Shown in pieces: positions 8,229 through 57,342 of a stretch of DNA of 64,000 nt. The DNA is from Klebsiella phage fENko-Kae01, in sequence record OR228459.1; one strand, written 5' to 3'. The first letter of the stretch is position 1. Each line of letters opens with the position of its first letter. Below the pieces are notes generated by a model that was not told where the DNA came from, did no database searches, and worked only from the letters and a program-made list of their open reading frames with translations. A program made the position numbers and the translations under genes.

Positions 8229-8723
8229 ATGTTTGAATGGGATCAAGAGAAGTACTTTGATCCTACCGAGGACGGTTTAACTCACATCAATACATATAGT
8301 AAAGGAAGAACCGTATTGGGGAGGATGCTATCAAATTTTGCATACTCCCCTTTTGTGTATGAACCATACGGGAAATTTGATTCAGTTGAGGGATTCTGGT
8401 ACTGGTACTTAACTGGACAGAAGCATGAAGACTTGAGAACAGTAAGTGGTTCATATGCTAAAGTACTTGGTAGGAAATATGAAAGTGATAGGGTAGAACA
8501 TTCTCTCACTGAAGAAACAATTGAAGTAATGCAAGGTGCAATGATTAGTAAGATTGCACAGAATAAAGAACTACAGGAAATGTTAATTAGTAGTACTTTG
8601 CCTCTATGTCATTACTATTTCATGTATGGACGTGTCATAAATCCCTTTGATGGTCATGATTGGTTCTCCGAGACATTGGAGGATATTCGGACGGTATTGA
8701 AACTTGGGACAAATGATGTTTAA
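8229..8723 (+). CDS. NADAR/YbiA-like (DUF1768) domain protein
   Basis: motifs LSNFAYSPF, SVEGFWYW, AKVLGRK typical of NADAR N-glycosidase family. Confidence 0.55.
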   Translation: MFEWDQEKYFDPTEDGLTHINTYSKGRTVLGRMLSNFAYSPFVYEPYGKFDSVEGFWYWYLTGQKHEDLRTVSGSYAKVLGRKYESDRVEHSLTEETIEVMQGAMISKIAQNKELQEMLISSTLPLCHYYFMYGRVINPFDGHDWFSETLEDIRTVLKLGTNDV

Positions 8724-8734
8724 TGTGATATAAT
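8704..8734 (+). promoter_or_regulatory. conserved phage promoter TTGGGACAAA-N13-TGTGATATAAT
   Basis: copy 1 of 11; immediately upstream of ncRNA copy A. Confidence 0.6.
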
Positions 8735-8787
8735 ATGTGTAGATATAACAATTGTGGCTGCTTTATGCAGACGTACTAAAACCGAAA

Positions 8788-9232
8788 CCCTTGAAAACGT
8801 AAAGGGACGATGAGCATGACCACACATGCGAAGTGCAGATGAAACCCGCTCGGCGGCAATGCGGCACTATAAAAGGACACGTAAGGCACGTTAAGTCCTC
8901 TTGATAGACATATGAGGTCACTCACCAAAATGCTAAGGGAGACGTTTATACGTCGCATATAGAGCTTGATCGAATAGGCTTTGTATGATGTGGACTAAGA
9001 CCCCGACCGTTGCATATGACTGTGATAGAGAGAAACAGAGCAACCCGCTTTCGTTCTTTGACCAGTTTTAGTACGCTATAGTTGTATCTAAAATTCAGAG
9101 AAATTCACAATTCGATAATTCCGAGGCTACCAGCGTCAGAATCAATAATCAATAATCAGTACTTTAATTAGTACTTTTTTATTGTCTTCATTCCCCAATG
9201 GGGGGATGAAATTGCCTCTACAAACCTCGTCA
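8788..9232 (+). ncRNA. large structured non-coding RNA-like element, paralog A
   Basis: no ORF; downstream of strong promoter; homologous to 55989-56375 with compensatory stem changes. Confidence 0.55.
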
Positions 9233-9345
9233 GGAATAAAAGTACAATATGAATTGAGTTACGATAATACGAACGTAGTGAGTATTAAGAGTAACGAAAA
9301 TTCTTAGACAATCGTAGATTGGCTAATTAGACAATAGGAACAATA

Positions 9346-10311
9346 ATGAATAAATTAAACAGATCACAAGGTTGTTTAATGGGACTAGCTGTAGGTGATG
9401 CAGTAGGAACTACCTTAGAATTTAAACAAAGAGATTCAGAGAATATCACTGATATGGTAGGTGGTGGCCCATTCCAATTAGAAGTAGGTCAATGGACTGA
9501 TGATACCAGTATGGCATTATGTTTAGGCTATGCATTGCTAGAAGATCATAAAGTAGAAACTTCTGATTGGTCTAGATTGCAATTAGTTAATTACGTTGAT
9601 TGGTACAAAAATGGTTATTGTAGTTCTAATGGATACTGCTTTGATATTGGCGGTACTACTAGTAATGCATTACTAAATTTCATCCGTAATGGTACACTTG
9701 TTAACAACGATCATTTTCTTGATTCTGGTAATGGTAGTTTAATGCGTTTAGCTCCAATCCCAATCTATTATAATACTGGTGCTGATGTTGATAAGTTCAC
9801 CTATTTGTGTTATGCAGCCGATATGAGCAGTTCAACTACACATGCAAGTACTTTATGTCGTCAGTCATGTGTTGCGTTTGCTGTACTACTTAATCGTGCT
9901 TTAAATGGCCCGATTGAATTAGAAAATGTTGAACATGATGTATTACAATCAAAGCGTTCATTACTTTCTTTCCCAGAAAAAGTTTGGGAAGGTCTTGTGA
10001 GTGAACCTTTAGTACTAGAAATCATGAATGGTTCTTATAAGAATAAGTCACGTGATGAAATTAGTTCTAGTGGGTATGTTATTGATAGCTTAGAAGCCGC
10101 TCTATGGTGCTTCTGGAACACCGAAAACTTCCGTGACGCAATCCTATTAGCTGCTAACTTAGGTGACGATGCAGACACCGTAGCGGCAATTACAGGGCAG
10201 ATTGCAGGTGCTTTCTATGGTCTTGATGGTATACCAGATGAATGGGTACAGAAGATTGCCAAGAAAGATGAAATTTTACAATTAGCAGAGGACTTGACAG
10301 ATGGGAATTAA
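9346..10311 (+). CDS. ADP-ribosylglycohydrolase family protein (DraG/ARH3-like)
   Basis: N-terminal GCLMGLAVGDAVGTTLEF and QWTDDTSMAL signature motifs. Confidence 0.85.
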   Translation: MNKLNRSQGCLMGLAVGDAVGTTLEFKQRDSENITDMVGGGPFQLEVGQWTDDTSMALCLGYALLEDHKVETSDWSRLQLVNYVDWYKNGYCSSNGYCFDIGGTTSNALLNFIRNGTLVNNDHFLDSGNGSLMRLAPIPIYYNTGADVDKFTYLCYAADMSSSTTHASTLCRQSCVAFAVLLNRALNGPIELENVEHDVLQSKRSLLSFPEKVWEGLVSEPLVLEIMNGSYKNKSRDEISSSGYVIDSLEAALWCFWNTENFRDAILLAANLGDDADTVAAITGQIAGAFYGLDGIPDEWVQKIAKKDEILQLAEDLTDGN

Positions 10312-12414: not shown

Positions 12415-12446
12415 TTGGGACAAACTAGGATTTATGTGATATAATA
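12415..12446 (+). promoter_or_regulatory. conserved phage promoter TTGGGACAAA-N13-TGTGATATAAT
   Basis: copy 2; precedes tRNA. Confidence 0.6.
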
Positions 12447-38593: not shown

Positions 38594-38597
38594 AAAG

Positions 38598-38628
38598 TTG
38601 GGACAAACTTAGAAAAATGTGATATAAT
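38598..38628 (+). promoter_or_regulatory. conserved phage promoter TTGGGACAAA-N13-TGTGATATAAT
   Basis: copy 9; drives leader plus tRNA-Leu. Confidence 0.6.
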
Positions 38629-38753
38629 ATTATTATCAGGACGGTAAGATATTCTGGTAAAATTTAGTTGAGTAGCTTAAGGGAGAGCAGCAGGTAATAA
38701 CGATAAGATCACCTGTCAGTGTGGATTTAAACACCACCTCAACAACACAATTT

Positions 38754-55616: not shown

Positions 55617-55900
55617 TGAATTTAAAAGAGAAGTATACTAAAAGTGGTGATCCACGTTTATTCCGCAAAGTACAAGTACTTGACAACGAATCCCAACGTA
55701 GTACGTATGAAAGTCTTGATGATCTAATTGATATGTTCCGAACTACCAAAGATGCTAAAGAACCAGAATTTGGTGTATACCTTAGCTTTGAAGAAGTACT
55801 AGAAGATATGCGTCCATTTATTGTTAATGGTTCAGACAAAGAAAAGATTGAAGCTAAAGCAATCTTGGCTTATGTTGCTGCTAAACTAGCGGAGAAATAG
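55616..55900 (+). CDS. hypothetical protein
   Basis: ATG overlaps TAA. Confidence 0.45.
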   Translation: MNLKEKYTKSGDPRLFRKVQVLDNESQRSTYESLDDLIDMFRTTKDAKEPEFGVYLSFEEVLEDMRPFIVNGSDKEKIEAKAILAYVAAKLAEK

Positions 55901-55931
55901 TTGGGACAAACATGAATTAATGTCCTATAAT
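55901..55931 (+). promoter_or_regulatory. conserved phage promoter (TTGGGACAAA-N-TGTCCTATAAT variant)
   Basis: copy 11; immediately upstream of ncRNA copy B. Confidence 0.55.
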
Positions 55932-55988
55932 AAGATATAAACCGATTACGGGGAGTCCAATGGACTCCCTGATGTTGTTATTCCTGAT

Positions 55989-56375
55989 CCACTTGAAAAT
56001 GTAAAGGGCAGATGAGTTGATAATCGCAACGAAGTGCAGATGAAACCCGCTCGGCGGCAATGCGGCACTATAAACGAGAACGTAAGGCACGTAACCTCGC
56101 TAGATAGACATATGAGAGTACTCACCAGATTGCTAAGGGAGTTTATTAAAGGGTTAGTCACACCCATAATAAACACATTCTATCGTGGACTGTATCGCGT
56201 TAGAATGAGTGTAGTAGGACTACGACCGTTGCATAGAACAGAGATAGGGAGAAACAGGGCAACTCGCTTCCGTGTCATTGACAATTCTCTATACAGTAAA
56301 GCCGATGCCACCAGCGTCAAGTTTTAATTCTTCCTCCCCAGCGGGGGGATGAAATTGCCTCTACAAACCTCGTCA
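55989..56375 (+). ncRNA. large structured non-coding RNA-like element, paralog B
   Basis: homologous to 8788-9232; shared blocks gaagtgcagatgaaacccgctcggcggcaatgcggcactataaa, gaccgttgcata, ccagcgtca, ggggggatgaaattgcctctacaaacctcgtca. Confidence 0.55.
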
Positions 56376-56475
56376 ATATAAAAGGTTGACATAATCAAAT
56401 AAATGAATTACACTGAACGAAGTGAAGAGTAATTCCGTTGCTATCGAAGATAGTAACGTTTGATAGGAGTTCAAA

Positions 56476-57342
56476 ATGATCCACCTAAAATTATCAATTC
56501 CAGATATGGATTATGCCAATCTCAATCCTGATTTTTATCCATACATTGACTGGAATAAATTGCGAGATACAGAAATCTCATTAATGCCGAAAGATGTAAT
56601 TCTATATGCACCAATTCGTAAAATCATTTCCCATTTAGGTACACAAGAAAAATCAGGTACAAGTGATATCCAAGTACTAGAAGTAATCGCACGTTGCTTT
56701 AATGAATTGAATGAAAAAAAACATTTATTTTCACGCGATGTAGATTTGTTCAACTTCATTAATGAATTTTGTAGTTTTGAATTTCGTAAGAAATATCATA
56801 GACAATTACTTGCTAAACGCCACCCAGAACATACATATCAGTTTGTCTGTACATTGGTCGCAGATTATATTGTTGGTTTGGAGTTTTTAGATAAACTACC
56901 TTACCATAAAATGACAATTGATGTATTCAACAAACTAAAACTGGAAGATATGAGAAAATTAATCTTCAATACTAATTACATTCAAAATACATTAACATAT
57001 CAAGTACCGATGGATGAAGCCGCTTTTGCATTACCATCGTCTGATTTAGAAAAATTAAAAATGCCAGTTCCCCGAAATGTTATGTTTACAAAAACACTAC
57101 AGAAATTATGCACGAGTGAACAGTTTTCGGTAGTTGTAAAACAACAAGAAGAAATTAATTGGGATGAAATGGTTAACTTATACCATAAATGTGAAATAGT
57201 ATACAGTGACTTATTTCTAGTTTGGAAAAAGTTTATTGAAGAAAGTAATGAGGATTATATTCGCGATTCTGAAGAATTTGTAAGAGAATCTTTCAACAAC
57301 AACTTTGATAGAAGTTACTTTAATATTAAGGATTACTTATGA
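56476..57342 (+). CDS. hypothetical protein (288 aa)
   Basis: RBS taggagtt. Confidence 0.55.
   Translation: MIHLKLSIPDMDYANLNPDFYPYIDWNKLRDTEISLMPKDVILYAPIRKIISHLGTQEKSGTSDIQVLEVIARCFNELNEKKHLFSRDVDLFNFINEFCSFEFRKKYHRQLLAKRHPEHTYQFVCTLVADYIVGLEFLDKLPYHKMTIDVFNKLKLEDMRKLIFNTNYIQNTLTYQVPMDEAAFALPSSDLEKLKMPVPRNVMFTKTLQKLCTSEQFSVVVKQQEEINWDEMVNLYHKCEIVYSDLFLVWKKFIEESNEDYIRDSEEFVRESFNNNFDRSYFNIKDYL

Follow-up and report, generated by a model that had tools for sequence, protein, structure and literature searches.

Evidence for a family of large, pseudoknotted RNAs encoded at dispersed loci of Rak2-like jumbo phages

Inspection of the sequence of a 64,000-nucleotide (nt) stretch of Klebsiella phage fENko-Kae01 (OR228459.1), hereafter the window, previously pointed to a structured non-coding element at positions 55989-56375 (copy B) as the second copy of another one at 8790-9233 (copy A). 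Comparative analysis of these loci and of their homologues leaves us with very little doubt that copy B belongs to a functional, structured RNA gene. Selection acts on the fold of the + strand RNA and not on its primary sequence or on any open reading frame (ORF). In an alignment (A3) of 48 distinct homologues from Rak2-like jumbo phages, standard base pairs filled 95.6% of 4075 cells, compared to 34-44% when the 3′ partners were slid by one to three columns. Changes on both sides of a pair were found at 58 of the 88 pairs (716 cells), and none of 500 shuffles matched any observed pairing measure. Helices were retained by a helix-level screen requiring compensatory changes together with a constrained consensus fold, which yielded 17 helices; this screen replaced a first all-pairs covariation screen in which one-sided changes were allowed and which was swamped by noise. 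The fold comprises about 18 helices in total and at least three supported pseudoknots (PK0, PK1 and PK2). Because several helices vary only by G·U pairs on the + strand, the + strand RNA is the selected molecule. Single-sequence folding of copy B was uninformative (z = −0.87), and comparative analysis was therefore needed.

A coding test of the element revealed no conserved ORF: the longest frames span 50-103 codons, lie in inconsistent frames and strands, and carry indels that are not multiples of three. The description of copy B as structured and non-coding thus stands, on compensatory pairing and on the lack of a conserved ORF. In the records of Salmonella phage 7t3 and of phage PHA46, copy B is overlaid by three annotated short minus-strand "hypothetical proteins" (L001, MK773491 30773-31301, equivalent to about 55946-56474 of the window). 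Copy A has no equivalent of the minus-strand ORFs annotated in 7t3, nor do the other copies conserve them, and the ORFs annotated over copy B in both records are almost certainly spurious.

The surroundings of copy B share 99.8% identity with phages 7t3 and SE_PL and 98% with PHA46 and Munch, all of which are ~350-kb Rak2-like jumbo myoviruses. Copies A and B, both on the + strand, align by blastn with 72.5% identity over 295 nt (E = 1e-38) and 86% over 66 nt, reach nhmmer E-values of 1e-99 and 1e-115, and are 70% identical over aligned columns, bearing out the assignment of B as a homologous second copy on the same strand. Their lengths (387 nt for B and 444 nt for A) had also been given correctly. 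The difference had been attributed to a central variable region; it resides instead in three peripheral stems, P7 being 20 nt longer in B while the P12 extension and the hairpin T1, 38 nt each, are found only in A (indel sizes of 1, 1, 1, 20, 1, 38 and 38 nt). The proposal that both copies are under selection is strongly supported, as all helices are kept in A and B through compensatory changes and each copy has syntenic orthologues in other phage genera. Copies of the B lineage are present and intact in all relatives examined; copy B is thus neither absent nor pseudogenised.

The core of the fold in copy B (all coordinates on the + strand) opens with hairpin P1 (55989-56008), which carries a conserved 9-nt loop, GAAAAUGUA, and in which five of five pairs are compensatory. 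The invariant J1/2 segment, (C)AGAUGAG (56009-56016), precedes hairpin P2 (56016-56030), whose loop is the 3′ strand of PK0. P3 (56033-56069) pairs AGUGC (56033-56037) with GCACU (56065-56069; three of five pairs compensatory, 100% of cells paired) and encloses P4 (56047-56050 with 56054-56057) as well as the invariant segments AGAUGAAACCCG and CGGCAAUGCGGC. Within the P5-P6 region (56075-56124), P5 (56075-56080 with 56095-56099; six of six pairs compensatory) is followed by the invariant joiner CUAGAUAGACAUAUG and by P6 (56113-56116 with 56121-56124; two of four). An invariant CCA...GCUAAGGGAG segment and the variable-length stem P7 occupy 56125-56175. The entire loop of hairpin P8 (56176-56207; 11 of 13 pairs compensatory), ACUGUA (56189-56194), pairs with UACAGU (56292-56297) about 100 nt downstream to form PK2, in which six of six pairs are compensatory and 98.5% of cells are paired. 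The remainder of the core (56209-56297) is a nested double pseudoknot containing P9, an invariant GACC, PK1, P10, P11, a minimal P12 (56273-56283) and the 3′ strand of PK2. PK1 (GUUGC, 56228-56232, with GCAAC, 56259-56263) crosses both P10 (56240-56244 with 56286-56290) and P11 (56247-56251 with 56267-56271); the three helices are 99.6-100% paired and contain 3, 4 and 4 compensatory pairs, respectively.

The exchange of paired sequences is apparent between the two copies of the window: B and A read CGAUUA/UAAUCG versus UGUGG/CCACA in PK0, ACUGUA/UACAGU versus AUCGAA/UUCGAU in PK2, AGAGA/UCUCU versus UGUGA/UCACA in P10, and GGGAG/CUUCC versus GAGAG/CUUUC in P11. Long unpaired segments are invariant in all paralogues (among them GAAAAYGUA, AGAUGAG, AGAAGAAACCCG, CGGCAAUGCGGC, AUAAA, GAUAGACAUAU, UAAGGGAG, GACCG, GAUAG, GAAAC and GGGGGGAUGAAA), and about 120 invariant positions are common to all of them. 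The suggestion that A and B are two RNAs with distinct partners found no support, since the invariant unpaired nucleotides are the same in both and the paralogues of a genome do not maintain distinct loop-loop pairing sequences. Orthogonal kissing loops, an arrangement that would point to intermolecular homo-oligomers, were also rejected, as paralogues of one genome often share the same loop sequence. A module of ~25 nt, UACAAUAUAG(A/U)U(C/G)CGUC(C/U)AAAAUU, recurs in the P7 or P12 stems of different paralogues (the P12 extension of copy A, 9071-9096, and the P7 extensions of many copies, e.g., L027 and L009) and behaves like a transposable tertiary-contact motif.

The bounds 55989-56375 proved too narrow. 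The conserved RNA extends both ways, spanning about 55938-56458 (~520 nt) in B and about 8741-9326 in A, and other copies of the family reach about 750 nt. Upstream of copy B, a promoter at 55901-55931 (+) combines a −35-like TTGGGACA (55901-55908) with TATAAT (55926-55931), scores 10/12 in a consensus scan and would place the transcription start at about 55938. The same promoter type, TGAAACG/TGGAACA/TGGGACA followed after ~15 nt by (TGn)TATAAT, precedes all ~50 copies. It is the motif described as a "divergent RpoD-like" promoter (−35 TGAAACG) in phages CBB and GAP32, found in CBB mostly before DNA-synthesis genes (PMC5259590), and we take it to be a putative middle-type promoter. A recurrent phage promoter motif, (C/G)TTGGGACAAA followed after ~14 nt by TGTGATATAAT, matches this TGAAACG type; its sites in the window (8704-8734, 12415-12446, 30602-30633, 34166-34202, 38597-38629 and 55901-55931) precede tRNA-Ser (12454), other tRNA clusters, one protein gene and both RNA copies.

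In many copies an intrinsic terminator lies just upstream of the promoter or overlaps the start site. In the G1 lineage and XaC1 (L029, L045, L071, L074, L082, L214, L039, L169 and L025), a strong hairpin with U6-8 directly follows the promoter, the presumed start site falling at or inside its 5′ arm, and this hairpin may block read-through from upstream while sparing transcripts started at the promoter.

The 5′ leader thus delimited holds the first pseudoknot. The PK0 5′ strand, CGAUUA (55943-55948, +), pairs with the P2 loop UAAUCG (56021-56026); across the family, 6-8 nt of the leader pair with the P2 loop, and nine or more compensatory variants occur at this site. In a formal test, 87% of cells were paired and seven of eight pairs had changed on both sides, compared to 25-43% of cells paired in slid controls. 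Between the PK0 5′ strand and linker J0/1 lies P0 (55949-55971, +), the hairpin that had been reported as a perfect 8-bp stem before B that copy A lacks. The hairpin is real, and with flanking pairs it reaches 10 bp around an AAU loop; its absence from A did not hold, copy A having a short version (CUGC-UUUAU-GCAG, 8758-8770). P0 is in fact a family-wide helix, a hairpin of unrelated sequence standing at the same place in essentially all copies. Within J0/1 (55971-55988, +), UGAUGUUG is complementary to CAGCGUCA of site 1 (56312-56319), and 7-10 nt of J0/1 are complementary to site 1 or site 2 in about 22 of the 48 copies, in lineage-specific registers; pairing of J0/1 with either site is suggestive only.

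The 3′ domain starts with a segment (56304-56334, +) made of hairpin P13 (GAUGC-CACCA-GCGUC), site 1 (CGUCAA, 56315-56320) and a U-rich linker. An additional hairpin, T1, stands between P13 and this linker in lineages G2-G4, including copy A (9158-9180), where it is terminator-like and carries U6; it is absent from B and its lineage, as from the other copies at the ~335-kb position. The following segment (56335-56377, +) contains P14 (UCCCC/GGGGG), the invariant GGAUGAAA and site 2, CAAACCUCGUCAA. P14 is the CCCC/GGGGGG hairpin (56335-56348), which, as had been claimed, is kept in B along with all conserved blocks; it is 99.6% paired and varies only by C-to-U changes giving G·U pairs, consistent with a + strand RNA. 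In the family, site 1 (CGUCAR, at the end of P13) and site 2 (CAAAYCNCGUCAR) covary as direct repeats (33 G/G, 11 A/A and 4 mixed; mutual information of 0.9 at the Y positions), and alternative pairings of the 3′ domain are possible. The direct-repeat units extend over ~23 nt, AAWU-CC...AYC(A)NCGUCAR (56312-56321 and 56366-56377 of the window; columns 517-538 and 609-636 of A3), and change in concert, including a shared C-to-U change in L189 and L192. A closing helix proposed by RNAalifold between GAUGAG (56011-56016) and CUCGUC of site 2 was rejected, as it showed zero covariation and was unpaired at two positions in 10-12 sequences.

Downstream of site 2, a 3′ module (56405-56457, +) is kept in nearly all copies. 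It consists of P16, pairing GAAUUA (56405-56410) with UAAUUC (56430-56435) around an inner hairpin with loop GAACGA, and of P17, GUUGCUAUC-GAA-GAUAGUAAC (56437-56457), in which seven of eight pairs are compensatory and 94% of cells are paired. The TTGACA-containing promoter said to follow copy B is present as a predicted sigma-70-like match, TTGACA (56386)-N17-TACACT (to 56414, +), whose −10 box overlaps the 5′ arm of P16, and the nearest orthologue (L104) reads TTGACA-N17-TACAAT. A sigma-70 or middle promoter was rejected as an explanation of the 3′ block across the family: the −35-like box lacks conservation, the spacing does not suit the TGAAACG type, and many of the "TTGACA" boxes belong to the covarying stem P17.

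Copy A, the paralogue of the ~260-kb position lineage, has the corresponding parts at 8701-9326 (+): the promoter TATAAT at 8729-8734, PK0 formed by 8753-8757 with 8820-8824, P0 at 8758-8770, T1 at 9158-9180, the core up to site 2 at 9233, P16 at 9252-9304 and P17 at 9304-9326, the ATG of an ADP-ribosylglycohydrolase gene following at 9346. In copy B, of the ~335-kb position lineage, a Shine-Dalgarno (SD) sequence, AGGAG (56465-56469, +), and the ATG (56476) of a 288-aa ORF without a Pfam match lie outside the RNA fold. The SD and ATG of the ADP-ribosylglycohydrolase gene directly follow the RNA in A and throughout the G4 lineage (N-termini MIDNRDRAIGALVG and similar). Copy A is flanked by a weak NADAR-like ORF (8229-8723; E = 0.006, below the Pfam cut-off) and by the ADP-ribosylglycohydrolase (9346-10311; E = 5e-67); a link to ADP-ribose/NAD chemistry, for example NAD-capped RNA, is pure speculation. 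A different arrangement is found in G3 and L016-type copies, in which P17 is followed ~45 nt downstream by a bidirectional terminator and then by a convergent gene; the RNA there is therefore not a leader and can be a stand-alone transcript. A bidirectional terminator motif, AAAAAAACCAGC-N4-6-GCTGGT(T/A)TTTTT, occurs at borders of the RNA genes, downstream of P17 in L102, L056, L009, L005, L016, L014 and L008 and upstream of the G4 promoters of L003, L024 and L137.

Homologues were collected by blastn and pattern scans, then by nhmmer, from GenBank phages and ~350-kb IMG/VR contigs. More than 70 copies were recovered from the two sources. The element is present in 61-70 GenBank phage records, whose hosts belong to Escherichia, Salmonella, Klebsiella, Erwinia, Yersinia, Serratia, Cronobacter, Pectobacterium and Xanthomonas; most records show nothing but an unannotated gap of 600-900 nt at these loci. 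Degenerate pattern scans of bacterial and viral contigs listed mostly chance matches. Among the matches listed, the only real one in a bacterial assembly was a full-length copy (L342; 2857-3395 of the 68.8-kb contig DAMALH010000023.1) in a Buttiauxella sp. metagenome-assembled genome, which is probably a mis-binned Rak2-like phage.

The original prediction counted two copies per genome; complete genomes have five. Five co-oriented copies separated by gaps of 44-86 kb were found in GAP32, Serratia phage BF, Yersinia phage fHe-Yen9-04 and two IMG/VR genomes, and those of 7t3 lie at 30.8, 103.3, 162.9, 243.8 and 325.5 kb, all on the + strand; 121Q and CBB yielded four copies. If five points are placed at random on a circle, a minimum gap this large has a probability of 0.0004-0.02 per genome, values that are not independent because the genomes are syntenic. 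Each paralogue clusters nearer to the same-position copy of other genera than to its siblings in the same genome, and the paralogues occupy syntenic positions across seven or more host genera.

No known RNA family accounted for the element. At gathering thresholds, Rfam 15 identified only 9 tRNAs in the whole window, and no family reached its threshold, including GOLLD, ROOL, OLE, HEARO, raiA, RNase P, tmRNA, group I/II introns and small ribozymes. A permissive search (E ≤ 10) of 55800-56500 and 8700-9350 returned only chance-level matches to unrelated small RNAs, and ARAGORN found 10 tRNA genes in the window and no tmRNA. We found no prior description of the element in PMC/bioRxiv, including the RaK2, CBB and PA5oct papers and the large csRNA survey of IMG/VR, in which motifs measure at most 151 nt. 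With no Rfam family and no description found, the RNA family appears to be new.

Its features are those of the "ornate" large non-coding RNAs, a descriptive class (OLE, GOLLD, ROOL and raiA): it exceeds ~400 nt, is non-coding and possesses covarying helices, pseudoknots and conserved unpaired nucleotides. The closest analogues, which appear to resemble it in kind only, are ROOL/GOLLD, ColE1 RNA II with the T4 origin transcripts, and the put/EAR RNAs. Like ROOL and GOLLD, the family combines 500-800 nt, many helices, pseudoknots and conserved junction nucleotides, and is encoded by phages in tRNA-rich regions, without an ORF and as a predicted transcription unit of its own (PMC12286853, PMC5737381). 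Unlike them, it forms five diverged, evenly spaced paralogues per genome, and its sequence and structure do not match their Rfam models; moreover, ROOL and GOLLD assemble by intermolecular contacts, whereas the loop-loop pairings of this family look intramolecular. A further comparison is with ncRNA002 of the related Pseudomonas jumbo phage PA5oct (L223, MK797984 21951-22401), a highly expressed 451-nt RNA representing ~5% of phage reads, which is of similar size, intergenic, on the + strand and located in a tRNA-rich terminal region (PMC7318152). Sequence-level comparison by nhmmer --max detected no homology between the two, and the hallmark blocks are absent from ncRNA002.

The reading that we favour, tentatively, is that the family encodes a stable, stand-alone, trans-acting "ornate" RNA, either a ribonucleoprotein (RNP) scaffold or a ribozyme-like particle. 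Each gene would be transcribed by the host RNA polymerase from the phage middle-type promoter, the pseudoknots would lock both ends into a compact particle, and the invariant junction nucleotides would form a binding or catalytic centre. The RNA itself would be the product and, like ROOL, GOLLD or OLE, would serve in trans as an RNP scaffold or a ribozyme-like molecule. The presence of several dispersed genes would provide enough of it, and divergence of the copies would be permitted or even advantageous, since recombination between identical direct repeats would tend to cause deletions. A trans-acting particle is favoured because of the scale of the tertiary structure, the invariance of the junctions from paralogue to paralogue, a promoter type that tRNA genes also have and the existence of stand-alone lineages.

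Several observations weigh against such a particle. A dosage model does not predict five copies 44-86 kb apart, nor the syntenic retention of each paralogue across genera without concerted evolution; both features fit a cis role at each locus better. Several lineages, that of B among them, look like leaders, with 8-25 nt between the end of the fold and the ribosome-binding site of the downstream gene. The trans-acting reading also does not settle the role of the 3′ domain (P13, T1, P14 and sites 1 and 2). Finally, the transcription start and 3′ end are placed by inference for all members, a literature search having found no transcriptome for any Rak2-like enterobacterial phage.

We consider it rather doubtful that the family is a new class of very large structured RNA acting in cis on ~70-kb domains, as pre-primer origins or locus-tethered devices, or that its multi-pseudoknot core is a new natural ribozyme. 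The specific version in which the RNA serves as an origin in cis, the structured transcript forming a persistent RNA-DNA hybrid that primes rightward leading-strand synthesis, strikes us as unlikely. ColE1 RNA II is a folded pre-primer of ~550 nt, a length similar to that of the RNA studied here, and T4 oriF and oriG are R-loops formed from middle-mode promoters. The family likewise consists of promoter-driven RNAs of ~0.5 kb whose fold could matter, with an invariant G6 run near the RNA 3′ end. Five co-oriented origins would split the ~350-kb genome into ~70-kb replicons, and the co-oriented copies, their regular placement with the minimum-gap probabilities given above, and the synteny of each paralogue across genera are as expected of origins. 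Support also comes from the T4-like replisome of these phages and from the putative middle-type promoter, found in CBB mostly before DNA-synthesis genes (PMC5259590). Yet a primer needs neither three or more pseudoknots nor some 120 invariant positions common to all paralogues, far more tertiary structure and invariant sequence than in known primer RNAs. Terminator-like hairpins with U-tracts stand inside or just after the RNA, unlike in ColE1 RNA II and the T4 origins, and the RNA would therefore be released from its template. We found no evidence in this family of an RNA-DNA hybrid, an RNase H site or an antisense regulator of the ColE1/T4 kind, and no inflection of GC skew at A or B, the latter being weak evidence with nearly all genes on one strand. 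Even spacing and promoter type thus lend some weight to the proposal that A and B are two origins; the elaborate fold, however, is left unexplained by it, and nothing tested requires origins.

Less likely still is a leader that acts in cis on its own polymerase, by put/EAR-like antitermination or hairpin-U control, and gates read-through into downstream genes; in one variant, J0/1 would compete with P13 for site 1 and thereby control the hairpin plus U-tract after the core. The put RNA of HK022 and the EAR RNA of Bacillus are RNA-only processive antiterminators, EAR being pseudoknotted. Like them, the family has several copies per genome and a structured RNA with a promoter just upstream and a terminator after it. 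Its RNA is always promoter-proximal and co-oriented with the downstream genes, often with a terminator just upstream of the promoter, and a hairpin (P13 or T1) with a U-rich tract follows the core in all copies. In G2, site 1 forms part of the terminator stem; in many copies, J0/1 shows complementarity to site 1 or 2, and the concerted evolution of these two sites would suit a common pairing partner. In B, A, G4 and G5, the SD and ATG of a gene come directly after the end of the fold. This explanation fails for the G3/L016-type RNA, which ends at a bidirectional terminator facing a convergent gene and has nothing downstream to regulate. Moreover, the downstream genes are unrelated between lineages (ADP-ribosylglycohydrolase, methyltransferase-like and unknowns), and a sigma-70-like promoter of their own is predicted for the B and G5 copies, located after or within the 3′ module. 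Known antiterminator RNAs measure only 70-120 nt, five to ten times less than this RNA.

It is highly improbable that the element has diverged from a known class of ribozymes or introns, for example group I introns, hammerhead, hepatitis delta virus (HDV)-like ribozymes or RNase P, no such family having matched either copy in Rfam at E ≤ 10. In the P10/P11/PK1/P12 core, the strands do follow one another as in the nested double pseudoknot of HDV-like ribozymes (a, b, e, a′, e′, hairpin, b′); unlike that fold, the core lacks P3, has a 5-bp "P1.1" where HDV-like ribozymes have one of 2 bp, carries an invariant AAU without the catalytic cytosine in the J4/2 equivalent, and begins PK1, the P1 equivalent, with a G-C pair (48 of 48 copies) and not G·U. 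The segment CAGAUGAG-(P2)-CGAAG is superficially hammerhead-like, but A stands at the position of U4, 10 of 48 copies have U at that of A6, the 15.1-16.1 pair flips to U-A in 9, and only two purines separate stems II and III. A group I intron was rejected on the ~10 nt between the PK1 5′ strand and P10, the closure of P11 before the hairpin and the lack of an Intron_gpI match; the element is also intergenic, with its own promoter and without exon flanks. Finally, despite the regular spacing and the short hypothetical ORFs annotated over the region in 7t3 and PHA46, we give almost no credence to a DNA-level repeat (for protein binding, recombination or packaging) or a small protein gene without RNA function, as compensatory pair changes and strand-asymmetric, G·U-tolerant variation are RNA signatures and the reading frames are inconsistent as described above.

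Few large, intricately folded non-coding RNAs are known, among them the ribosome, RNase P, group I/II introns, OLE, GOLLD, ROOL and HEARO/omega RNA, and each has opened new biology or new structural principles. The family described here, with its 0.5-0.75 kb and three formally supported pseudoknots, is found in about 70 sequenced jumbo phages and corrects the annotation of several GenBank records that place spurious "hypothetical proteins" over these loci. It also shows an odd genome-scale regularity, in that its five paralogues are syntenic, co-oriented and evenly spaced. The hosts are culturable and genetically tractable and, given these properties of the family, its function is therefore directly testable.

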